A stretch of 63,834 nt of DNA, from NCBI GenBank assembly GCA_035686845.1, contig DASRZA010000447.1, forward strand, positions 1 to 63,834, given 5' to 3'. Under the pieces are notes generated by a model, which had not been told where the DNA came from, searched no databases, and worked only from the letters and a program-made list of their open reading frames with translations. The DNA is from Armatimonadota bacterium (lineage in GTDB: Bacteria > Armatimonadota > DASRZA01). This document shows positions 1 to 63,332 of the stretch, one piece after another. The position numbers and the translations under genes were made by a program. Each line of letters opens with the position of its first letter. Position 1 is the first letter of the stretch.

Positions 1-467
1 CTCTATCTTGGCTTCATCTCGTTGTGCTGCGCGCTCGATGGGCTGTTGAGGAGTCCAGCCGAGTTCCTTGAGCAATCGTGAGACGTGACTCTTATGATAG
101 GTAACGCCATATTCCAACTCTATCACCCAAGCAACTCTATCACCCGAGCAACTCGAGCACATGTCCAAAGCTCGCCCGCAAAACCGTAAGCCTCAGCGCC
201 GTGACAGAGAAACTCCGGGATCTCTCCGAGCTGTATTGGGCTGAGTTTAGGTGGACTGCCTGGACGAGGCCGTGACAGCAGTGCCTTCTCGCCCCGTTGG
301 CGCGCTGTCTTCAACCACCGACTGACGGCTGTCTTCGAAACATGAAGAGCTTGAGCGATGTCCAGTCCACTCCAACCCTCCTGACTCAACTCTACGGCTC
401 GAAGACGGCGCCACTGTTTCAGAGCAGCGTCGTTACCCAGCTTCTTGGGAGTGTGTGAGGTTGTCAT
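1..467 (-). pseudogene. IS630-family transposase, N-terminal part, frame-disrupted
   Basis: ORF 123..467 encodes an HTH-type N-terminus (GLDIAQALHVSKTAVSRWLK). Bases 1..114, read in a different minus-strand frame, give ELEYGVTYHKSHVSRLLKELGWTPQQPIERAAQRDEAKIE, the usual IS630-type continuation. Removing one copy of the 17-bp duplication at 115..148 joins the two frames as ...ARVARVIELEYGVTYHK... Confidence 0.75.
115..148. repeat. 17-bp tandem duplication, with a partial third copy following it
   Basis: caactctatcacccaag at 115..131 and caactctatcacccgag at 132..148, followed by caactc at 149..154. 17 is not a multiple of 3. Confidence 0.9.
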
Positions 468-650
468 ACTCTACATATAGCCTTACCTCCAAAGTTAACC
501 ATAGAGTTAACCTAATTATGCATCGCTCAGTAAGTGCGGACCGGTAGGTCGGTGATTTCTCTTACAAGCGAGCACGCGCGTCCTCCAGCAAGAAGAATGA
601 AACCGCCTCAGCCACAATATTCAACTGTATGCCGAACATGGGATCCAACG

Positions 651-1412
651 TTATGGATGCTCAGGCCGCACGGCGATAGAGAGCGCCTGACAGAGTGGCG
701 TGAAGTGTGTTACATTACCCGTGTAAATCGCGCCGCAACCCACCGAGCGCGCCTCCAATGCGATAATTGTGTCTCCGAGGCGCTGCCATTTCCGAATGCC
801 AAGATCGAAGCGTTGGTTTTGAATGTCCGCGAGCGCACTCGTGACTTTCCCCGAGTGATCGCCCGGCTCTTGATTCATGCGTTGGTAGATGCAATTCACG
901 CGCGTCGACCCCGACTGAAGGAACTGCTTCAATCCCGCGGGAGCGGCCTTCGGTGGAAATGCTGCCCCCATTACAAACACTCCACCCTCCAGGCGAGGGA
1001 GGACGTCCCCAGCGGCACAGTTTGTAGGGTCCTGCAATTGACAACCGGCTTCGTCGAACCACCCCATCACGCCATCTTCGATAAAGCGTCTGAGTATCCG
1101 CAGTGCGCCTTCGCGGGTCCTGCCCTGATCCACCGCCCAGTGTAAAAAGGTGGGCACCAATTCCTTCTGTCCGCCCCGGCGGGTTTGCGCGTGGCTCCAC
1201 GCGTCATGCAGATTCGCTGCTTTTACGCACACGCCGTACGCATCCACGGCGGCTCGCAGGAAGGTGTTGAGGTACTCAGCCCGTACGTAGGTCGAGGTCA
1301 CGCAGCGCCGGCTGTCGAGCGTTCGCTGAATACGCTGCTTCACCTCCCTGGATTTGGTGATGCGCCAGATGAAGATCGTCGTCTCCACAAAGAGCGGCTC
1401 TTCATCGTTCAC
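651..1412 (-). CDS. PIN-like domain protein with a large central insertion; putative RNase or toxin
   Basis: The N-terminus LFVETTIFIWRI resembles PIN strand 1, with E in place of the usual D. It also has TSTYVRAEYL and a C-terminal GDTIIALEA...IYTGNVTHFTPL, which resembles the PIN D..IAA.A...L.T.N..F block. The overlapping ORFs 534..1145 and 715..1200 are R/G/P-rich antisense artefacts. Confidence 0.55.
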   Translation of the reverse strand: MNDEEPLFVETTIFIWRITKSREVKQRIQRTLDSRRCVTSTYVRAEYLNTFLRAAVDAYGVCVKAANLHDAWSHAQTRRGGQKELVPTFLHWAVDQGRTREGALRILRRFIEDGVMGWFDEAGCQLQDPTNCAAGDVLPRLEGGVFVMGAAFPPKAAPAGLKQFLQSGSTRVNCIYQRMNQEPGDHSGKVTSALADIQNQRFDLGIRKWQRLGDTIIALEARSVGCGAIYTGNVTHFTPLCQALSIAVRPEHP

Positions 1413-1436
1413 GAAAGACTATCTCGATCGCGGCCT

Positions 1437-2114
1437 TCAACTCCCTGCGTCGGCTGCATCGGGACAGTAGCCGAACTTCTCTAGCGAGGGTATCCAGTTG
1501 AGGCCGCCGCGGCACAATTCCCGTGAGAACCGCGACAGATCAATCTTATCGGCCCTGGTGACGACGATTTCGACTATTGCGCGGCGAACTCTCTCGAAGT
1601 TCTTTAAGGTGAACTCATCAACCGACTCATTGAGCAGTACCAGGCGCGTTTCCATCGCAGCCATGCTCAGGTCGTCGTACCCGTACGACGCAGCCGTCTC
1701 CTCCATGTCCCAGAGCGCCTCACCGAGGCTGGCCGCGGCTTCAGCGCGAAATGAAGGCAAATCAACGGCCTCAACGAAGCGCTGCAGTCCCTCCTGCACG
1801 CTATCCCGCGCGGCTTCGAGCCGCGGCGGAGCGCCGCTCTCATCCGCTATCCGTAAGCTGTAATCCTCACCGCGCAACCACGGCGCGATCAAGCCCGGTA
1901 AGGGGCCGTTGTAAGTCTCAGTCGTAATCCCGCGCCACGAGAGCGTGCCCCGTCGCCGGACATCCTTGACCGTTGGTGACCACCGGATGCGCCCGGCCGG
2001 CGCCTTTGAATCGACGTTCGGGACCGCCCGTACCGGTGAGCGCGACAGGATTCCCACCACCCCATTTGAACCACCGGTACCCAGTAGAAGGCTGTCTGCA
2101 GGCGCAATTCTCAT
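1437..2114 (-). CDS. Hypothetical protein, middle gene of the three-gene module
   Basis: I chose the internal ATG at 2114 (MRIAPADS...) because it forms an ATGA overlap with the stop of the upstream gene at 2111..2113. The ORF-track start at 2204 would overlap that gene by 94 nt. No motif recognised. Confidence 0.55.
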   Translation of the reverse strand: MRIAPADSLLLGTGGSNGVVGILSRSPVRAVPNVDSKAPAGRIRWSPTVKDVRRRGTLSWRGITTETYNGPLPGLIAPWLRGEDYSLRIADESGAPPRLEAARDSVQEGLQRFVEAVDLPSFRAEAAASLGEALWDMEETAASYGYDDLSMAAMETRLVLLNESVDEFTLKNFERVRRAIVEIVVTRADKIDLSRFSRELCRGGLNWIPSLEKFGYCPDAADAGS

Positions 2115-4108
2115 TGAGATGTCTCCCCATTTGATGGTTCGAGTTTGAACTGACCCAGGATGAGATAGAGGTGAAGTACGGTATCCAGAACGGGCCCCAC
2201 GCATTGATTCGGATCGATCACGCCATGAGCCACGCGGTTTCGAAGGTTCCAGCCGGCGGGATCAGCCATGACCAGGCGGATGTATTCTCGGATCTCGGCC
2301 GGAATCACGGCCTGTACCTCTCCGAAGCGCAGGAAAGCGCCAAAGTTTGAGTCAAGCTGCCATCCATCAACGCCCCGGCGGCGATTGATTGCCGGCATTC
2401 CCGCCCGTTCGAATAGAGTCCGGATGACATCCTCAAACTGCAGAGCGAGGATGTGGATCGCGCTGACGTAATCGTCCGCGAAGTAACGCTCGAAGCCAAC
2501 GCTGATTATTTCAAGGTTGTTTTCATCTACGAAGCCATAGGAGCCAACGTACTCGGTCAGCGCTGGCGCATTCAGACCCCGCTCTCGAAGCCTGGTAAAG
2601 AGCGGCGCCAAAACAGCTGCAGCGTTAATCGTAATCCAAAGAAGAAGGTTCCGATCCCGCTCGCTGGCCAGCCATGCAGGGTCGATCGCTTGCTTCGCGC
2701 CCTCATTTGAGATTTCCGGGCTGCCTGACGCGGCATTCTCAGCCCGCCGGTCGCGGGCCGGCACGTGAGCCACGGGAATCTCGTCAACGACCAGCGTCCT
2801 GGGAATAAAGTGGATCAGATGCCTTTGTTCCGCTGCCTGGCGGGCCTGCTGCTCAGCAAGTTCCAAATTCGGCAAAAGAGAACCTTCGGACGCGACCCGC
2901 TTCAAGCATTCCGCCAGGTTATCCGGCTGAAGCAGAGGTCCCAGCAGCTCCTCCAGTTCCTCTTCGGGGACCTGGAAGGGAACTGAAATAGCGCCCATCT
3001 CTCGGCGCCCAAGGCGGTACTGCTCTCTGATCTTACGCTTGAGCTCGTTTACTCTTCGCAGCAGCTCCTCACGATGCTTGATGGGTGTGCGGTGATCATT
3101 CCTAAGGCGTTCGTAATGGTTGAGGGCCATTTCGTACAGACCCGCGGCCGCCAGATGGCGTGGGCGTGGGCCGGTCGTGCGGCTTAGCGCCTCGCTTTCG
3201 AGGGATTCTCCCTCTCTGAGGCGTAGAAGGCAAACAGTTTCGCGGTCACCCTCAAGCTCGGCGGCGCGGGCAGCCAGTCCGAGGAACTCCTGTTCTCCCC
3301 AGCGGTCATCGGCCGCGGCATTCTGGTCTGCGAGCTCAAGTGCGGCGTCCTCCACTTCCGTCAGCTCCTGATCTCCGACCACCGAGGCGCCCAGTCGATC
3401 ACGGATGTACAATGCAATTCTGCTGAATTCTACTACCCACCGGCCGGGCGGGTGGCGAAGGTCCCGACCATTCCGGATCGACGCCGTTTGATTCCGAATC
3501 AAGCAAAGGAGTTCTTTAACGAGCCCTTTCACACGCGGCCTATCGCCGATTTGCATGGCAATATGCGAAGCACAATCCAGAGCCACGGCGGATTCCAATA
3601 GTGCGTTGTTTCGGTCGGAATCTGAAAACAGCCGGGCGCTCTTAAGATAGGCGTCGATCGACGCGCGCGCATCAAGATGATCGTGGAGTCTCTCCCAGCG
3701 AATATCGCGAAACCGTGCCGCCACTACCGGGTTTGCAGTTGCACCCGCTCGCTTGGCGAGGTAGTCGAGCATAGTCTCGGTGAAAGAATCAGGGTCGGGA
3801 AACGTGTTGCCGTTCTCGAACTGCAGAAATCCGGTCAGCCGCGCGCTACCTCTGGAAGCGTCCTCTTCAGAGGAAATGATCGACGTGCGGATGACGAGGC
3901 TGAGAGCGAGGTACTCCCAGCGCAAGTGTTCCAGATCCGTGTCGGGAAGATGCTCTTGCACCCTGGAGAACGTGTTCTCAACTTCGCGGGCCAGTTCTCG
4001 TGCAGGACGTGGTGGCTCGGCCTTGTCCAGACTCGAGAATAGAGAATTGAGCTCGCCCGAGCCTTCGTCTTCAGTCATACTGCTCGCTCCGTAATCCAGC
4101 TCGATCAT
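2111..4108 (-). CDS. Large alpha-helical protein with a C-terminal HEPN-like Rx4H motif (DUF4209/Abi_C-like)
   Basis: 665 aa. The C-terminus contains ...ADPAGWNLRNRVAHGVID..., in which RNRVAH fits the HEPN Rx4-6H signature. The overall layout resembles DUF4209-type proteins; that is a recollection, not a search result. Confidence 0.6.
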   Translation of the reverse strand: MIELDYGASSMTEDEGSGELNSLFSSLDKAEPPRPARELAREVENTFSRVQEHLPDTDLEHLRWEYLALSLVIRTSIISSEEDASRGSARLTGFLQFENGNTFPDPDSFTETMLDYLAKRAGATANPVVAARFRDIRWERLHDHLDARASIDAYLKSARLFSDSDRNNALLESAVALDCASHIAMQIGDRPRVKGLVKELLCLIRNQTASIRNGRDLRHPPGRWVVEFSRIALYIRDRLGASVVGDQELTEVEDAALELADQNAAADDRWGEQEFLGLAARAAELEGDRETVCLLRLREGESLESEALSRTTGPRPRHLAAAGLYEMALNHYERLRNDHRTPIKHREELLRRVNELKRKIREQYRLGRREMGAISVPFQVPEEELEELLGPLLQPDNLAECLKRVASEGSLLPNLELAEQQARQAAEQRHLIHFIPRTLVVDEIPVAHVPARDRRAENAASGSPEISNEGAKQAIDPAWLASERDRNLLLWITINAAAVLAPLFTRLRERGLNAPALTEYVGSYGFVDENNLEIISVGFERYFADDYVSAIHILALQFEDVIRTLFERAGMPAINRRRGVDGWQLDSNFGAFLRFGEVQAVIPAEIREYIRLVMADPAGWNLRNRVAHGVIDPNQCVGPVLDTVLHLYLILGQFKLEPSNGETSQ

Positions 4109-4114
4109 GGATTC

Positions 4115-4123
4115 ATTCTATCA
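4115..4123 (-). promoter_or_regulatory. Extended -10 element (TGATAGAAT) 6 nt upstream of the 4108 ATG; implies a leaderless mRNA
   Basis: The minus strand reads gatagatgTGATAGAATgaatccATG, and there is no Shine-Dalgarno sequence between the -10 element and the ATG. Confidence 0.4.
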
Positions 4124-4144
4124 CATCTATCAGAACACGCTCCA

Positions 4145-4180
4145 TAAGCAAAAGGCCATCCGGTCTCCCAGATGGCCTTC
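4145..4180 (-). terminator. Intrinsic terminator downstream of the tRNA pair
   Basis: The minus strand reads GAAGGCCATC-tgggagaccg-GATGGCCTT followed by TTGCTT: a 9-bp GC-rich stem followed by a U-rich tail. Confidence 0.7.
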
Positions 4181-4192
4181 CGATAACTTGCA

Positions 4193-4264
4193 CTCCCCCG
4201 ACTGGACTCGAACCAGTAACATTTCGGTTAACAGCCGAACGCTCTGCCATTGAGCTACAGGGGA
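4193..4264 (-). tRNA. tRNA-Asn (anticodon GTT), CCA not encoded
   Basis: The reverse complement is TCCCCTGTAGCTCAATGGCAGAGCGTTCGGCTGTTAACCGAAATGTTACTGGTTCGAGTCCAGTCGGGGGAG. The anticodon loop is CTGTTAA, a GTTCGAGTC T-arm is present, and the acceptor stem pairs TCCCCTG with CGGGGGA. Confidence 0.9.
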
Positions 4265-4280
4265 TCGTATTTAGTTTTAA

Positions 4281-4356
4281 TGGTGGAGGCAAGCGGGCTC
4301 GAACCGCTGACCTACTGCGTGCAAAGCAGTCGCTCTCCCAGCTGAGCTATGCCCCC
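4281..4356 (-). tRNA. tRNA-Ala (anticodon TGC), CCA encoded
   Basis: The reverse complement is GGGGGCATAGCTCAGCTGGGAGAGCGACTGCTTTGCACGCAGTAGGTCAGCGGTTCGAGCCCGCTTGCCTCCACCA. The G3:U70 identity pair is present and the anticodon loop is TTTGCAC. Confidence 0.92.
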
Positions 4357-4399
4357 CTGCCCTCTCTTACCCTCGCCGCCCGGTTCCTGCGGCAATCCA

Positions 4400-4428
4400 A
4401 TTATACCGTCCGCGGGAAAGAGTGTCAA
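4400..4428 (-). promoter_or_regulatory. Consensus sigma70-type promoter for the tRNA-Ala/tRNA-Asn unit
   Basis: The minus strand reads TTGACA (4428..4423), a 17-nt spacer, then TATAAT (4405..4400). It lies about 40 nt upstream of the tRNA-Ala 5' end. Confidence 0.75.
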
Positions 4429-4445
4429 CCCAAAAAACCGGTGGT

Positions 4446-4477
4446 GGGTATTGGGTGTTAAGTGACGGGTATTGGGT
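4446..4477. repeat. Two perfect 11-bp direct repeats (GGGTATTGGGT) spaced 21 bp apart, start to start
   Basis: Copies lie at 4446..4456 and 4467..4477, followed by related ttgggtaac and ttaggtaac motifs. They sit between divergent promoters. Confidence 0.8.
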
Positions 4478-4540
4478 AACAGTTATTAGGTAACGCGATT
4501 CGTGTGATAGGACTCCGGAAGTTCGGGAAAGGATGAGGCG

Positions 4541-5068
4541 ATGGAACAGATCAGGGGACTGCTGCAGGACTATATCGCGAGCCCGGGAGCGCCACCGAAA
4601 CCTGCGGAAGCCGTGCATCAGGATTACCAAAATGTTGCGCAGACCGCGCCGAAGGATGTAGTCGCGCAGGGAATTGCATCAGCGTTCCGATCCAACCAGA
4701 CACCTCCGTTCGCTCAAATGGTGTCCAGCCTCTTCGATCAGTCGGGGGGACCGCAGCGGGCCAATCTGTTGAACCAGCTTTTAGGAGCAGCCGGGCCGGG
4801 ATTGGCTTCGGATGTTCTATCTCGCCTCGGCCTCTCCGACCTGGCCGGATCGCTCGCCGGTTCACAGGGAAATGTGACGCCTGATCAGGCGTCGCGAGTT
4901 CCGGCGCCCGCAGTGAAAGAGATGGCGTCACAGGCTGAGAGCCAGGATCCGTCGATCGTCGACACGCTGAGCCGTTTCTACGCTGATCATCCCGAAGAAG
5001 TGAAGAAACTCGGCCACGAAGCCCTCTCGATAGCAATGTCGGCGATGGGGAACCGCTCGGTCGCGTAG
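4541..5068 (+). CDS. Hypothetical protein
   Basis: 175-aa ORF with balanced composition, preceded by aaaggatgagg. No motif recognised. Confidence 0.55.
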   Translation: MEQIRGLLQDYIASPGAPPKPAEAVHQDYQNVAQTAPKDVVAQGIASAFRSNQTPPFAQMVSSLFDQSGGPQRANLLNQLLGAAGPGLASDVLSRLGLSDLAGSLAGSQGNVTPDQASRVPAPAVKEMASQAESQDPSIVDTLSRFYADHPEEVKKLGHEALSIAMSAMGNRSVA

Positions 5069-5102
5069 ACAGCGATCTGATGGCCCCGGCGACTCCATCA
5101 CC

Positions 5103-5744
5103 TCAGTGATGAGCGCGCATGGAATCTTTGCCTGCGCCCGGTTGCACGTGAACGATGAGCGCGTTCAGACCGTGTTTGCTCCGCGCGGCAAAGGTCATGG
5201 CTCGATCGCCGGGGCGCAGCCGGGAGAATGGCATCGTGTGAGCGACGACTATCCGGGCGCCGGGGAGCAGCCTGACGTGAATCAGTTTGCCGCCGGGCCC
5301 TCGCAGCGTCAATGGATTGGCCTTGATGACCCGGCCGATCCCGCCAAAACCGGAGGATGGCGGTGGGACGCCTGCGGCCGACGCGGGTGGAAACAGCACC
5401 AGCATCCGGGCGCTGAGAATGCCGTGAGTTTCGGTTCCGATAGCGTGCGCGTTCCAACCGGGTTTGATACTGGCGCGGGCGCCTGGATCGAGCTTGAAAA
5501 AGTGACTGGCGTGGGTCACGCCAAGACGGACCGAGGCGCCGTTCATCGATTTGAGAACGTAGTAACCAGCGCCGGTTCGGACGACAATGCCCATCGCTTT
5601 CGGCATGGTTCCGGATGCCGGCATGGCAGGCAATCGCATATTTCGAGCAGCGCCAGGGCTTGCCATGCCGCCCCGGGCTATCGCGCCCGAGCCCGTCAGG
5701 AGCGACAGAGCCGCAGCCGCGATCACGATCTTACTAATCCTCAT
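5103..5744 (-). CDS. Secreted hypothetical protein
   Basis: N-terminal signal peptide MRISKIVIAAAALSLLTGSGAIA, with two similar internal segments. The overlapping plus-strand ORF 5106..5777 is R/G-rich. Confidence 0.6.
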   Translation of the reverse strand: MRISKIVIAAAALSLLTGSGAIARGGMASPGAARNMRLPAMPASGTMPKAMGIVVRTGAGYYVLKSMNGASVRLGVTHASHFFKLDPGARASIKPGWNAHAIGTETHGILSARMLVLFPPASAAGVPPPSSGFGGIGRVIKANPLTLRGPGGKLIHVRLLPGARIVVAHTMPFSRLRPGDRAMTFAARSKHGLNALIVHVQPGAGKDSMRAHH

Positions 5745-12396: not shown

Positions 12397-14337
12397 TTAT
12401 GGCTTCTCATCCAGGGTCACACCGCCGGGCCCGATGAAATAGGCGATCCGGGAATAGCGTCGCTGTGGGTCATGATCTCGAAGCAGATCGTTGGTCACGA
12501 TGGGGCATTCAAGCCGGCGCGCCTCGGTCAAGAGTGAAAGGTCCGCGTCCGTCCGGCTCTGCGCGAACCGGATCTCACCGCGCAATTCCCAGCGGTTGAG
12601 CCGATCCGGGTTTTTGACCTGGAAGAGAAGTGAAGCGTCGCAAAGAATAATAATCGGGAAAAAGCCGGCTTCCAGCAGTTTCTGGCGCACCGCGCGGATG
12701 TTTTCAAGGTTGGGACCGCTCTCCTGGTTATTTCCATCCCACGCGACGTTGCTGCCATCCACGACCACCGGGCGAGTGGAGGCGCTGAGCACGCGGCGAG
12801 CGCCGGGCAGGTAGGCGTTGGCGCCTTCAATAACGTGCAGCGCTGCCTGCCTCACTTCGCCGCTCTGGCCGGCGGCCCATTTTCTGAAGGGATCTACCAG
12901 CGATTCGTCTGCGGCGGCGATCGCGGCTGCCAACTGGGAAGCGGAGAGCGATCCGCCTGGCGCGCCGGGCCACGGCGCCTCTACCCGCTTGTGCTCGACC
13001 ACCAGCGCCGGCTGCAGTCTTCGCCACAGACCGCGTTTGAGGCGGCGAGCGAGTGACTCGAAGGTCTTTGCAGCGTCGAGCGAAGTTCGGAGAAGCTCGC
13101 CATAGAGCTGCGCCACCTGCTCCACTTCCGCGCGGGAACCCGCGTCGGTGATTTCGAGCAGCTTCTCCATGCGCCACGTAACGTCGGCATCGCCGGGCGC
13201 GGCACGGATGCTCTCGCAGAATTCCGCTACCGCCTCTTGACGCCGGTTTTCGGCCAGTGCCGTTGCGCCCGCGTGATAATGATATTGTCCGACCTCTTCG
13301 GCGCTGCCGCCCAACGTGAGGGCCTCCAGCATGAGCTTCCGGGGGACCGGATTTACGGGGTCGAGGTCCAGCCATTCCCGGGCGTAAGCGGCAGCCGCGT
13401 CGAACAATCGCTTTTCGATCAGGCGCTGCAGCACCTGTCGGCTGAGATCCACGCTGGTCGCGACCGACGGCGGCGCGGCGCCCCGATTCGCCGCCGGCGC
13501 CCGGTCCGTGAGGCTCGAAACCGTCTTTACCTTTTCACGCCGGAGCGCCTTCGCGGCGCGATCCGCCCGGGCGGTCTCCTCATCCAACTTCTTCTGCAGC
13601 CGCTCCAACTTCCGGCGAGCCGACTTCAAATCCTCTTCGGCGCTATGCTGGAGCCGGCGCGCTTCATTCAATTCACGACGGGCGGATTCCAGATCCTTGC
13701 GCTCTGCCAGGGGATCAGCGCGAGACGGCGGCTCCCGAGGCTGGATGGAGGCGGCTGCTCGCGGCTTTCCGGCGTGCTCTGATTCCCGCGGCTTTCCGGC
13801 GTGCTCTGATTCCCGCGGCGCGGTCTGGCGCTTCTCGGAATCTGAGATTCCGAAGGCGATCGTGGGCACGGGGGAGACTACATGTTCAGCGACGCCCGAG
13901 ATAGAGGCGTCCGGGCCATCGGAGGGTTCCGGTTCCTCCAGACAATCAGCCGGCGCCGACGCTGCATTGAGGCCCGTGCGTGGATGCAGAATCAGCGCCC
14001 ACTGGACCACTTCGGCGCCATGCTGCGCCGCCAGCTCACGGATACCCTCATCGGCGGGTGGATCGGGAAGCTGCTCCAGCGCCGTGAAGAGGTCTCCCCG
14101 AAGATGCTCAAATCGAGAGGAGAGCGCGTTGAGGGCGTCTGTGGTATGCAGCAATTCCTGAATTCGCTTGCGAATGATCGGGCTGGTGAGCGACTTTGGA
14201 TCCGATCGGAAGCCAACGAAGATCCGGCGCTCCAGGTTAGCGTCGCGCAGACTCACAATCAGTTCGCGTCCGCCGATGAGGGTGATCAGCGCACTGAGCG
14301 ATGGCAGCGAAGCCCTCTCATCGGGATCGATTGTCAT
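12397..14337 (-). CDS. Zc3h12a-like NYN-domain ribonuclease with a long helical/coiled-coil N-terminal region
   Basis: The C-terminus reads RPVVVDGSNVAWDGNN...GFFPIIILCDASL...IVTNDLLRD, matching the VIDGSNVA-type NYN motif. The start was moved to the ATG at 14337 (MTIDPDER...), which makes an ATGA overlap with the rlmN stop. Confidence 0.7.
   Translation of the reverse strand: MTIDPDERASLPSLSALITLIGGRELIVSLRDANLERRIFVGFRSDPKSLTSPIIRKRIQELLHTTDALNALSSRFEHLRGDLFTALEQLPDPPADEGIRELAAQHGAEVVQWALILHPRTGLNAASAPADCLEEPEPSDGPDASISGVAEHVVSPVPTIAFGISDSEKRQTAPRESEHAGKPRESEHAGKPRAAASIQPREPPSRADPLAERKDLESARRELNEARRLQHSAEEDLKSARRKLERLQKKLDEETARADRAAKALRREKVKTVSSLTDRAPAANRGAAPPSVATSVDLSRQVLQRLIEKRLFDAAAAYAREWLDLDPVNPVPRKLMLEALTLGGSAEEVGQYHYHAGATALAENRRQEAVAEFCESIRAAPGDADVTWRMEKLLEITDAGSRAEVEQVAQLYGELLRTSLDAAKTFESLARRLKRGLWRRLQPALVVEHKRVEAPWPGAPGGSLSASQLAAAIAAADESLVDPFRKWAAGQSGEVRQAALHVIEGANAYLPGARRVLSASTRPVVVDGSNVAWDGNNQESGPNLENIRAVRQKLLEAGFFPIIILCDASLLFQVKNPDRLNRWELRGEIRFAQSRTDADLSLLTEARRLECPIVTNDLLRDHDPQRRYSRIAYFIGPGGVTLDEKP
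13761..13814. repeat. Perfect 27-bp tandem duplication, in frame
   Basis: gcggctttccggcgtgctctgattccc occurs twice (13761..13787 and 13788..13814) and encodes ESEHAGKPR twice in the NYN protein. Confidence 0.9.
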
Positions 14338-15482
14338 TTGGCGGAGGAAACGCCGGAATCGAGATGGAGCGAAGGCGCGATGGCAGAGACATCCGGCGCC
14401 GCGGCGCCCGGCACGGAAGCGCCCCCTATGGCGTCGGTCGAGATTAGCGTCTGCTTCCGAAGCTGGCCGCACGCGGCCATAATCTCCTGGCCCCGTTCCA
14501 TGCGCTGGGTGACCGCGATGTTAGACTGTTCCAGGATACGCCTGAACTGGGTAACTTCAGCCGGTCGAGGAGCGTGGTACTCGTCGCTGGCGCCCGGGTT
14601 ATAAGGAATTAGATTGACGTGATTCTGCCCCCCGCGGATCAGTGCCGCCAGTTGACGGGCGTGTTCCGGTTGATCGTTGACTCCCCGCAGCAGGACATAT
14701 TCAAAGGTAACGCGGCGGCCGGTTTTCTCTTGGTAGGCGTCACAGGCGGCCAGGATCTCGGACAGAGGATAGCGGCGGGCGACCGGGATCAGCGTCTGCC
14801 GTATCGCATCGTTGGGGGCGTGGAGCGAGACGGCCAGGGTGAACGGTTCATTCTCGCCGGCGAGGGAAAGCATCTCGGGAACCAGGCCAACGGTTGAGAT
14901 GGTGATATGGCGCATCGGGACGCCGATCTCGGAGTGCATGATGCGGGCGGCTTTGAGAACCTCGCGGGTGTTCATTAGCGGCTCGCCCATGCCCATAAAA
15001 ACCACGTGCGTGTAAGTCCGCCCGGTTAACCGGCGCGCGGTGAGGAGCTGATCGACGATTTCGCCGGCGCTTAGATTTCGGGAGTAGCCGCTCCGGCCGG
15101 TGGCGCAGAACGTGCAGCGAATTGGGCAGCCGGCCTGCGACGAGACACAGATAGAAGTTCGATCCGCGAAGGGGAGCGAAACCGTTTCAATGGATTCGCC
15201 ATCGGACAGTCCGAAGAGGAACTTCTCGGTTCCGTCCTTCGCCTGCTGGCGTCGAACCAGGGTGAGGCAGTTGAGCCGGGCTTCGTCACTGATGCGTTTG
15301 CGGAGCGCGGTCGGGAGATCGGTCATGGCGTCGAATGAGTCGACGCCGCGCGCGTACATCCAGCGGGCGATCTGCCGGCCGCGGTAGGCGGGTTCTCCCC
15401 AGCCGGCTGCGATCGCCTCAAGCTCTTCCCGGGTTTTGCCGGGTAGGACCGCGGCGCCACTTTCTATTGTATTATCACTCAT
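14334..15482 (-). CDS. rlmN: 23S rRNA/tRNA adenine-C2 methyltransferase RlmN (radical SAM)
   Basis: CPIRCTFCATG cluster motif, GEPL, and a C-terminal ...AACGQL. The start is set at ATG 15482 (MSDNTIESG) to avoid overlapping the upstream gene. Confidence 0.88.
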   Translation of the reverse strand: MSDNTIESGAAVLPGKTREELEAIAAGWGEPAYRGRQIARWMYARGVDSFDAMTDLPTALRKRISDEARLNCLTLVRRQQAKDGTEKFLFGLSDGESIETVSLPFADRTSICVSSQAGCPIRCTFCATGRSGYSRNLSAGEIVDQLLTARRLTGRTYTHVVFMGMGEPLMNTREVLKAARIMHSEIGVPMRHITISTVGLVPEMLSLAGENEPFTLAVSLHAPNDAIRQTLIPVARRYPLSEILAACDAYQEKTGRRVTFEYVLLRGVNDQPEHARQLAALIRGGQNHVNLIPYNPGASDEYHAPRPAEVTQFRRILEQSNIAVTQRMERGQEIMAACGQLRKQTLISTDAIGGASVPGAAAPDVSAIAPSLHLDSGVSSAK

Positions 15483-61664: not shown

Positions 61665-63332
61665 ATGTCATCTGAACGGGAGAGTTCTCCACGCATTTTT
61701 GATAGCGCCGAACAATGGACTGATCTCGATTCGGCGGAAATCGTGATCGGACTGGTGGCTCCAATCGGCACCGACCTATCATGTGTCGCGGACGATCTAA
61801 TCGACGAGCTAAAGCGAGTTTCCTATCAAGGCGTACTAATACGACTCTCGAGGCAGCTTCGAGAGCTCAGTCGTCCTGATATCAAGGCGATTCTCGAAGA
61901 CGTGTTGGACGATGGACCGGCCGATATCCGCATGGCGGCTTACATGGACGCGGGCGACAAGTTTCGTGAACTGTTCGGCAAGGACGCTGTCGCAAGATTG
62001 GCGATCGGGGCAATAATGGCGGAGCGCCGCGAGCTCGTGAGTCGAGCTAAGGCGGCGATTCCAATTGAAAGCGTTACGGACGACCGCGCCCCGGCTGTTA
62101 TTGCTCCGGTCGACAGGTTCGCCTATGTCCTATATCAGCTCAAGCGGCCAGAGGAGGTCCAATGCCTCCGGGAGGTGTACGGACCCGCATTTATTCTTAT
62201 CGCGGTTCATACTCCCAGGGAGCAACGTGTAAGGAATTTGGCGGAAAGGATTGCGCAAAGCCACCATGAGTACCAGAAAGCGAAATATGGCCCTCACGCT
62301 GAGACGCTTGTCTTGCGCGATGAGGCTGATTCCCAGAAAGACGTCGGCCAAAATGTAAGCGATACCTTTCACCTGGCGGATGTTTTTATCGATGGCGCAA
62401 CTCCGGACCAACGAAGGATGGGAATTCATCGCTTCGTTGAGTTGCTGTTTGGAAACACTTTTTATACGCCAACCAAGGATGAACAGGGTATGTTTCATGC
62501 TCACGCGGCATCCCTTCGCTCGGCGTCGTTAGGAAGGCAGGTCGGCGCGGTTTTCGCCACCGAAGGAGGAAGTATTGTCGCGGTCGGATGTAATGAGGTT
62601 CCCAAAGCCGGAGGTGGGATGTATTGGCCGCGGGATCACGGGGACGCACGCGATCATGTCCTCGGTAAGGATCCGAGCGATGAGATGAAGCGGGATGTCC
62701 TGGCGGATATACTTAAGAGATTGAATGAAGCAGGTTGGCTCGAACGTTCACGGTCGGATCGGACGCTGAGCGATCTCATGCATGATGCGCTGGAGGAAGG
62801 TCTCATGAACGGCGCACACTTCATGAACCTCATCGAGTTCATGCGACCGGTACACGCCGAGATGGCGGCTCTCTGCGACGCAGCTGAGAGAGGCGCTTCG
62901 CTTAAGGGCGCCACTCTCTATGTGACTGCATTCCCGTGTCACGTGTGCGCGAAGCATATCGTAGCGGTGGGCGTCGACCGGGTGGTGTTCATCGAGCCCT
63001 ACCCGAAGAGCCTGACGGTTAAGCTTTACAGCGACTCGATAAAACTGGACCCCCCAGATATATCCTCGGAGTATGTGCGATTCGTCGCATTTGTTGGCGT
63101 CGCGCCTCGGCGTTTTCGGGATTGGTTCATGATGGTAAACCGAAAGGACGCGATGGGGAATCTCATTCGATGGGACGGAGCAAAATCCCGCGCGAGATTG
63201 GGCGACTGGGCTCCAATGCTTGACGCGACGGTTTTCAGGGAAAAACTCAAATATAACGCTCTCGCTGTATGGACAGGAGGGCAATCGCCGAGTGTGGAGG
63301 AAACTAATGCTGCAGAGAGGATGGATGGCTAA
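61665..63332 (+). CDS. Kinase-like N-domain fused to a dCMP/cytidine deaminase domain, resembling anti-phage dCTP deaminases
   Basis: The C-terminal zinc motif is HAEMAAL ... PCHVCAKHI (HAE...PCxxC). The N-terminus reads IVIGLVAPIGTD... 555 aa. Confidence 0.7.
   Translation: MSSERESSPRIFDSAEQWTDLDSAEIVIGLVAPIGTDLSCVADDLIDELKRVSYQGVLIRLSRQLRELSRPDIKAILEDVLDDGPADIRMAAYMDAGDKFRELFGKDAVARLAIGAIMAERRELVSRAKAAIPIESVTDDRAPAVIAPVDRFAYVLYQLKRPEEVQCLREVYGPAFILIAVHTPREQRVRNLAERIAQSHHEYQKAKYGPHAETLVLRDEADSQKDVGQNVSDTFHLADVFIDGATPDQRRMGIHRFVELLFGNTFYTPTKDEQGMFHAHAASLRSASLGRQVGAVFATEGGSIVAVGCNEVPKAGGGMYWPRDHGDARDHVLGKDPSDEMKRDVLADILKRLNEAGWLERSRSDRTLSDLMHDALEEGLMNGAHFMNLIEFMRPVHAEMAALCDAAERGASLKGATLYVTAFPCHVCAKHIVAVGVDRVVFIEPYPKSLTVKLYSDSIKLDPPDISSEYVRFVAFVGVAPRRFRDWFMMVNRKDAMGNLIRWDGAKSRARLGDWAPMLDATVFREKLKYNALAVWTGGQSPSVEETNAAERMDG

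Follow-up and report, generated by a model that had tools for sequence, protein, structure and literature searches.

Three adjacent genes near one end of a contig from an Armatimonadota bacterium raise the question of whether a predicted HEPN ribonuclease and a pair resembling a toxin–antitoxin module form a single conflict module (abortive infection or addiction) or are merely neighbors. The contig (DASRZA010000447.1, NCBI GenBank assembly GCA_035686845.1) was analyzed over 63,834 nucleotides (nt), and this whole stretch is referred to below as the window. An earlier note, made from the sequence alone, had described the genes as a HEPN-like protein, a protein without any motif and a PIN-like protein, and had likened them to an abortive-infection or toxin–antitoxin-type system. 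Calling of open reading frames (ORFs) places all three on the minus strand where the note had put them, between tRNA-Asn and an IS630-like relic. The genes are called g1, g2 and g3; other loci are designated L0xx and related proteins P0xxx.

2111 to 4108, minus strand: g1, a DUF7380 + DUF4209 (HEPN) protein of 665 amino acids (aa), possibly 655 aa
1437 to 2114, minus strand: g2, antitoxin-like partner of 225 aa, with syntenic homologs 5' of every g3 relative examined
651 to 1412, minus strand: g3, predicted PIN-like nuclease with a large helical insert, 253 aa, GTG start

In the lineage of the window the three genes are co-inherited, and they are probably co-transcribed. We lean, without great assurance, toward regarding them as one functional unit that serves as a conflict module. 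The TGA of g1 overlaps the ATG of g2 (caATGAgaatt), and g3 follows g2 after 24 nt, both as first noticed. Translation of g1 may start at Met11 (ATG at 4078, with GGAG 8 nt 5' of it) instead of residue 1, which would give the 655-aa gene-caller product P0006. Since diverged homologs of all three genes exist elsewhere, g1, g2 and g3 are more than chance ORFs, and that reading was ruled out.

The recurrence of the trio is among the observations behind the proposal of a single unit. Two metagenomic loci hold the same genes in the same order, in a check for co-occurrence that the note had proposed: L033 (g1-like 2290-4203, g2-like 4241-4795, g3-like ending at 5591) and L038 (5338-7377, 7406-8008 and 8001-8783). 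All three genes show a congruent pattern of identities among the three copies:

g1: window versus L033 38%; window versus L038 36%; L033 versus L038 54%
g2: window versus L033 26%; window versus L038 27%; L033 versus L038 34%
g3: window versus L033 41%; window versus L038 42%; L033 versus L038 51%

The genes that surround the trio differ at each locus:

Window: tRNAs and an IS630-like element
L033: an MqsA-like antitoxin, an AAA_14/DUF4143 ATPase and an N6_N4 DNA methylase
L038: an ECF sigma and anti-sigma pair, a TPR protein and a beta-helix protein

Because the three loci keep the trio while their flanks are unrelated, the trio, and not the neighborhood, is the conserved unit. All three known members of the window g1 subfamily adjoin a pair of the g2–g3 type. 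This pair is the core of the locus and has a far wider spread than the trio.

The place of g3 among PIN-like proteins was approached through its family. A profile built from g3 and three relatives of 40% identity was scored against 1.84 billion representatives and found about 289 related clusters (at 50% identity), mostly full-length proteins of about 250 aa. The family consensus reads F-[LV]-[DE]-T-T ... [ST]-S-x-Y-V-x-x-E-[FY] in its N-terminal part, D-x-T-x-C ... C-x6-7-C ... G-x-x-C-x-x-L-G-D-x-I-I-A-L-E-x-P across the cysteine-containing part and T-T-N-x-x-[HD]-F at the C-terminal end. In g3 itself, the predicted fold is divided as follows:

1272 to 1397, minus strand: N-terminal PIN block (aa 6-47), with strand 1 carrying E10-T11, strand 2 and a helix carrying E46
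798 to 1271, minus strand: helical insert (aa ~48-205); the Cys4 site of the family lies here and just beyond
663 to 797, minus strand: C-terminal PIN block (aa 206-250), with the invariant D214, the IIALE helix and T231-x-N233-x-x-H236-F

The stretches VETTIFI, GDTIIALEA and YTGNVTHF, by which these terminal blocks had been recognized, are all present. The insert between them, put at roughly 130 aa in the note, is also seen; the inter-block segment spans about residues 48-205, so the net insert is roughly 100 to 130 aa. In a 131-sequence alignment, from which all residue and domain counts for the family were taken, position 214 is an invariant aspartate, position 10 is D or E in 125 of the 131 members and position 46 is E in 111; N or D is seen at position 233, and H, D or E at position 236. 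Of the four acidic active-site positions of PIN domains, g3 has E10, E46 and D214; at the fourth it has N233/H236, an arrangement that some VapCs share, for example that of L034 (TFNVRHY).

At the family level, Pfam PIN (PF01850) matches 12 of the 131 relatives (best E 4.5e-6), single members match PIN_12 and PIN_3, and no other Pfam family recurs among the 131. The family profile aligns with VapC 7by2 over two collinear segments (E 0.059), and the C-terminal D..IA...T.N..H[FY] motif aligns with a canonical VapC encoded in L034 (DSLIAA...TFNVRHY); hhalign comparisons of the family with single VapC sequences were weak. An AlphaFold (AF2) model of g3 computed from the 131-sequence alignment reached a predicted local distance difference test score (pLDDT) of 96.3 and a predicted template modeling score (pTM) of 0.93. 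Its top Foldseek matches include archaeal and bacterial PIN and VapC structures, namely 1y82, 5h4h (VapC4), 1v96/1ye5 (PH0500) and 3zvk (VapC2), with probabilities of 0.66-0.96, target-normalized template modeling (TM) scores of 0.54-0.59 and about 248 aligned columns that cover both termini. No usable Foldseek match came from an AF2 model based on four aligned sequences (pLDDT 76), and a search of a viral structure library with the g3 model gave none. The PIN assignment made in the note is thus supported for g3, as a PIN-like protein with a large insert, by the modeled fold and by the profiles of its relatives, although not by a direct profile match of g3 alone.

Four cysteines in and beside the insert, at g3 positions 132, 152, 159 and 209 (window positions 1015-1017, 955-957, 934-936 and 784-786), are conserved in 120 of the 131 relatives and presumably form a Zn or Fe-S site. 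g3 keeps only C132, the other positions being F152, A159 and W209. The window subclade of eight sequences shows C-F-x-W in place of the four cysteines, so that the site has been lost and swapped for hydrophobic residues. As a separate observation on the family, the relatives P0140 and P0151 (454-473 aa) carry an N-terminal HSDR_N domain, the PD-(D/E)xK-like N-terminal domain of the type I restriction R subunit, fused to the PIN-like domain.

The middle gene, in which the note had seen no motif, indeed matches nothing in Pfam, NCBIfam, PADLOC or PHROGs, and a word-indexed search retrieved only g2 itself. It is nevertheless recognizable as an antitoxin-like partner by synteny and by a C-terminal domain that it shares with its counterparts:

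1482 to 1826, minus strand: conserved C-terminal domain of g2 (aa ~97-211), ending in GL-x-W-[IL]-P

Wherever the context of a g3 relative could be read, its immediate 5' neighbor was a co-oriented gene encoding about 136-225 aa. This was so in 22 of 22 tabulated loci (L001 from a Chthonomonadaceae metagenome-assembled genome (MAG), the short contig L003 and 20 from Chloroflexota and Clostridia), although a frameshift splits the gene in L005, and such a gene was also present in the later-found L033, L034 and L036-L039. The two genes frequently overlap by 4-8 nt and are otherwise separated by gaps of 28 nt or less. The C-terminal domain of g2 matches the partners in L033 and L001 with pairwise E-values of 1e-8 to 4e-9, and over the closer partners as a whole the pairwise E-values run from 4e-9 to 2e-4. 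Distant partners have in common with g2 an acidic tail and a C-terminal domain that closes with G-L-x-[WF]-x-P. When 839 ORFs were ranked by a hidden Markov model (HMM) built from the distant partners alone, the four Chthonomonad-type partner ORFs took the first four places. In the opposite direction, an HMM of the g2 group matched the Clostridium partner in L006 (E 2e-4) and placed 13 syntenic partners within the top 40 of 1256 ORFs. Five Chloroflexota partners carry a Phd/YefM antitoxin domain at their N-terminus (best E 7.5e-13). These five have the layout of classical antitoxins, which place a DNA-binding N-terminal domain before a toxin-binding C-terminal region. By sequence comparison, g2 is predicted to be an antitoxin-like, obligatory upstream partner of the g3 family.

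On the basis of the upstream partner, the Phd/YefM domains in the partners of relatives, the PIN-like fold and a plasmid par context, the most fitting reading of g2–g3 is that of a VapBC-like type II toxin–antitoxin-type pair, and the toxin–antitoxin-type appearance described in the note is borne out in this layout. The predicted pair belongs to an undescribed family, as no model in Pfam, NCBIfam, PADLOC or PHROGs covers either the g2 or the g3 family. Members of the g3 family occur in Armatimonadota, Chloroflexota, Clostridia (Firmicutes) and on Nostocales plasmids; no member was found in a search of viral contigs and phage genomes. Cys4 members annotated as hypothetical proteins are located on eight Nostocales plasmids. 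In the two plasmids inspected, Nostoc PCC 7120 pCC7120gamma (L036, record 1569-2840) and N. punctiforme pNPUN03 (L037), the family member and its 136-aa partner adjoin parA/parB and a tyrosine recombinase. A site beside plasmid par loci is typical of addiction modules.

The relatives were found in mixed contexts, and not in the consistently housekeeping contexts that the note had set against its own proposal; such mixed contexts are usual for toxin–antitoxin modules. In L034 (113-646, 1954-5538), the pair lies amid a NOV_C/DUF3883 protein, a canonical VapBC-like pair and a DUF1156 DNA methylase, a setting that resembles a defense island. A decaying copy is present in L005, from a Chthonomonadaceae MAG (3118-5383), where a frameshift affects the g2-like gene, an IS4-like transposase interrupts the g3-like gene and an IS3-like element lies upstream.

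For the first gene, the domain assignments were more direct, both Pfam domains scoring above their cut-offs (for DUF4209, PF13910, 46 bits against a gathering cut-off of 22.3):

3533 to 3796, minus strand: DUF7380 match in g1 (aa 105-192, Pfam E 1.2e-7)
2162 to 2434, minus strand: DUF4209 / HEPN domain of g1 (aa 559-649, Pfam E 5.7e-12)
2225 to 2242, minus strand: Rx4H motif R623-N-R-V-A-H628 of g1, a putative catalytic site

The stretch from which the Rx4-6H signature had been read, GWNLRNRVAHGVID, corresponds to residues 619-632; it is present near the C-terminus, though not at the very end of the protein as had been written. DUF4209 is the C6orf70/ERMARD family, a member of the HEPN superfamily for which active RNases are predicted and whose bacterial members occur in restriction–modification-related operons (Anantharaman et al. 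2013, PMC3710099). When defense profiles were searched, the check that the note had proposed, the PADLOC PDC-S39 HMM matched g1 with an E-value of 2.8e-38 over model positions 78-581 of 615, which is near full-length, and also matched the g1 homologs of L033 and L038. It was the only PADLOC match of g1 at E<=1, and no Abi_C or ApeA-type match was obtained.

Outside the trio loci, g1 is highly divergent, with no more than 25% identity to anything. A word-indexed search of 5.8 billion proteins found P0007 (25% identical to g1) as the sole relative, three locus scans using g1 or its alignment gave no match, and a search of solved structures found no relative of g1. The motif survives this divergence: G-W-N-L-R-N-R-V-A-H-G is identical in the L033 homolog (38% identity) and is kept in P0007 as G-L-N-L-R-N-H-V-A-H-G, so that G-x-NLRN-x-VAHG is invariant among the three. 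The conservation of R623-x4-H628 at 25% and 38% identity, together with the Pfam match to a published HEPN family, upholds the HEPN assignment, and g1 is a predicted DUF4209-type HEPN RNase. A 225-aa gene adjoining P0007 was considered as a counterpart of g2 and rejected as not g2-like.

A mechanism can be proposed from these predicted parts. In this scheme, g3 would be a metal-dependent PIN-fold nuclease, most likely an RNase, with E10, E46, D214 and N233/H236 as its putative active site, and g2 would be the cognate inhibitor that neutralizes g3, holding it inactive through the conserved C-terminal domain. Loss of g2, by proteolysis or blocked synthesis, would free g3, whose presumed toxicity would lead to growth arrest. 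The gene g1, inherited with the pair in the window lineage, would add a second RNase, of the HEPN type (R623-x4-H628). A plausible arrangement is that g1 acts as an infection- or stress-responsive RNase while g2–g3 provides a fail-safe or stabilizer; an anti-phage role of the whole, and a physical link between g1 and the pair, may be supposed in such an arrangement.

The immediate surroundings of the module bear on how it came to lie where it does and on how it may be expressed:

4193 to 4264, minus strand: tRNA-Asn(GTT), confirmed
4281 to 4356, minus strand: tRNA-Ala(TGC), confirmed
4428 to 4400, minus strand: tRNA promoter with a perfect sigma-70 consensus, TTGACA-17-TATAAT, 5' of tRNA-Ala/tRNA-Asn
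4149 to 4182, minus strand: terminator-like 15-bp hairpin followed by UUUUGCUU (U-run), which closes the tRNA operon just 5' of g1
1 to 467, minus strand: N-terminal part of an IS630-like transposase, frame-shifted; the contig end cuts the element

The hairpin at 4149-4182 has a free energy of -27.5 kcal/mol (z -5.1), and with such a terminator-like structure after tRNA-Asn, expression of g1–g3 probably starts from signals of their own, situated in the short interval between the hairpin and g1. On the other side, 3' of g3, the IS630 relic reported earlier is borne out by two segments in different frames, an ORF matching HTH_29/23/32 at 123-467 and a match to HTH_33 at 1-126; at 115-148, a tandem duplication of 17 nt (CAACTCTATCACCC[A/G]AG x2) lies between the HTH_29/32 and HTH_33 segments and breaks the frame of the insertion sequence (IS). 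A 1.85-kb contig from another sample has the same g2–g3–IS junction at 99% protein identity. The window comes from a Chthonomonadales-like member of the Armatimonadota, and the best relatives of the genes neighboring the module show only 37% identity. Elsewhere in the window, a 691-aa protein (12397-14472, minus strand) bears a Zc3h12a-like NYN RNase domain at its C-terminus (Pfam E 9e-8) and is a further PIN-superfamily nuclease, and a 555-aa protein (61665-63332, plus strand) has cytidine/deoxycytidylate deaminase and MafB19-like deaminase matches.

A number of observations weigh against a single unit or against the roles proposed for its parts. At the level of single proteins, g3 has no profile match in Pfam (E<=1), NCBIfam, PADLOC or PHROGs, and the Foldseek E-values of its model against PIN/VapC structures are only 0.4-0.8, weak because a helical insert of about 150 residues intervenes; library scans detected no DNA-binding domain in g2; and the g1 homolog of L038 (5338-7377) reads GWNLGNRVAHG, the arginine of the Rx4H motif being replaced by glycine, so that its HEPN domain may be inactive and HEPN catalysis may not be required. 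At the level of the locus, the pair occurs without a DUF4209 gene in L001, L034, L039, Chloroflexota, Firmicutes and Nostocales. The first position is taken in L034 by a 177-aa NOV_C/DUF3883 protein, and in L005 (2394-3131) and nine Clostridia loci (L006, L008, L009, L014, L015, L020, L021, L023 and L024) by an unrelated family of about 220 aa, here called A'. Conversely, DUF4209 genes elsewhere stand solo: P0007 in a P4-like integrative element alongside AlpA, AAA_25 and DUF5677 genes, and others on plasmids among integrases, recombinases, toxin–antitoxin pairs and a type III-like methylase with helicase. The two parts can clearly work apart. These facts would suit an account in which two independent systems, a toxin–antitoxin pair and a HEPN gene of the solo DUF4209/PDC-S39 type, travel together as small mobile cargo, the pair merely stabilizing host DNA; most lineages have the pair as a self-sufficient system, the PDC-S39 candidate consists of a single gene, and the g3 of the window is no closer to that of the trio loci (41-42%) than to that of the pair-only loci (40-42%). 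We regard such independence as possible yet rather unlikely, since the exact order g1–g2–g3 is kept at three loci whose flanks all differ, g1 has diverged in step with g3, the stop of g1 and the start of g2 overlap, and neither the homolog search nor the locus scans found a g1 of the window subfamily away from the pair.

It is also conceivable that g2–g3 is a housekeeping nuclease for RNA or DNA processing with an adaptor subunit, and g1 an unrelated protein of RNA metabolism. The contexts of L001, L038 and L039 look chromosomal or housekeeping, which counts against a conflict role: the pair follows FTHFS in L001 and URO-D in L039, and pyrimidine biosynthesis genes are nearby in L009. Neither the large insert nor the Cys4 site is typical of VapC toxins. 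We consider this account very improbable in view of the patchy spread of the family (only about 289 clusters in the 1.84 billion representatives), the plasmid relatives beside par loci, the IS elements that flank or disrupt the module in L005, the Phd/YefM domains fused to partners, the HSDR_N fusions in some members, and the defense-type neighbors (methylases, a VapBC pair and NOV_C) in L033 and L034. The remaining account concerns the position of the module and not its function. The earlier note had seen a classic island integration side in the location directly 3' of the tRNA-Asn 3' end and beside an IS630-like element, and on this ground tRNA-Asn could be the insertion site of a genomic island that carries the module. 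However, no integrase is found in the available 4.2 kb (1-4192), the tRNA 3' end (12-29 nt) is not repeated anywhere in the window, the GC content (0.591) is within about 1 standard deviation of that of the rest of the window (0.607 +/- 0.016), and a search for syntenic relatives with an empty site found none. Since the contig ends inside the IS, the far boundary of such an island would be out of view. With no integrase, repeat or compositional anomaly at hand, integration at this tRNA seems unlikely, and this part of the note is not supported.

A more far-reaching reading starts from the first gene. Different first genes have been seen with the pair, namely DUF4209 HEPN (window, L033 and L038), a nuclease-like NOV_C/DUF3883 protein (L034) and A' (L005 and Firmicutes), and other members of the g3 family have HSDR_N fused to the PIN-like protein itself. 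The A' proteins end in an invariant F-x-C-D-x-x-D-L and matched nothing in Pfam or the PDB; they were compared with g1 and rejected as relatives (hhalign prob 0.15). The g2–g3 pair might then be a chassis that combines with interchangeable first-gene effectors or sensors in an unrecognized, modular multi-nuclease defense family, with the g2-type protein coupling two nucleases and the Cys4 insert serving as a metal or redox sensor, a reading that we hold to be speculative and on balance doubtful. The g2/g3 family is a widespread PIN-like, toxin–antitoxin-type family with an unusual Cys4 insert that is missing from the searched libraries, and a divergent DUF4209 HEPN subfamily, hitherto a single-gene defense candidate, occurs here in an operon with this pair. 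The trio offers a concrete and testable case of a dual-RNase module. If the proposal is true, it would provide a new toxin–antitoxin family and, for the DUF4209/ERMARD-like HEPN proteins of bacteria, a first approach to their function.

Among known systems, the HEPN–MNT modules and the abortive-infection HEPN proteins (AbiD/F Abi_C and PrrC/RloC types) resemble the locus in having a HEPN RNase with an Rx4-6H motif and a presumed controlling partner in a conflict context (PMC3710099). Identity with HEPN–MNT was ruled out, as g2 and g3 have no nucleotidyltransferase match and the partners are a PIN pair, and an ApeA or Abi_C type was ruled out by the lack of such matches. The closest likeness for g1 is PDC-S39 / DUF4209 (ERMARD), with which it shares the DUF7380 + DUF4209 architecture, the Rx4H motif and a near full-length HMM match. 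The locus departs from the single-gene definition of PDC-S39, however, as g1 heads a three-gene operon in the window, L033 and L038; PDC-S39 is, to our knowledge, a candidate only and has not been experimentally validated. Three-component toxin–antitoxin systems (TAC, omega-epsilon-zeta and paaR-paaA-parE) likewise extend a toxin–antitoxin pair by a third gene. In these systems the third co-transcribed gene is a chaperone or small regulator, whereas here it encodes a 665-aa predicted RNase, and elsewhere A' or NOV_C/DUF3883. The nearest analogs of g2–g3 are the VapBC systems, including Phd/YefM–VapC hybrids. The pair differs from them in that g3, which has no library profile match, is about 250 aa long against about 130 aa for VapC, owing to the large insert (with a Cys4 site in 120 of 131 relatives, lost here), and in that g2, at about 180-225 aa, has no detectable DNA-binding domain. 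Nevertheless, as in VapBC, the antitoxin-like gene lies 5' of the PIN-fold gene and is coupled to it, the acidic triad positions and the C-terminal D..IA...T.N..H/D-F motif are conserved in g3, and the relatives of g3 have Phd/YefM-containing partners and lie beside plasmid par loci.

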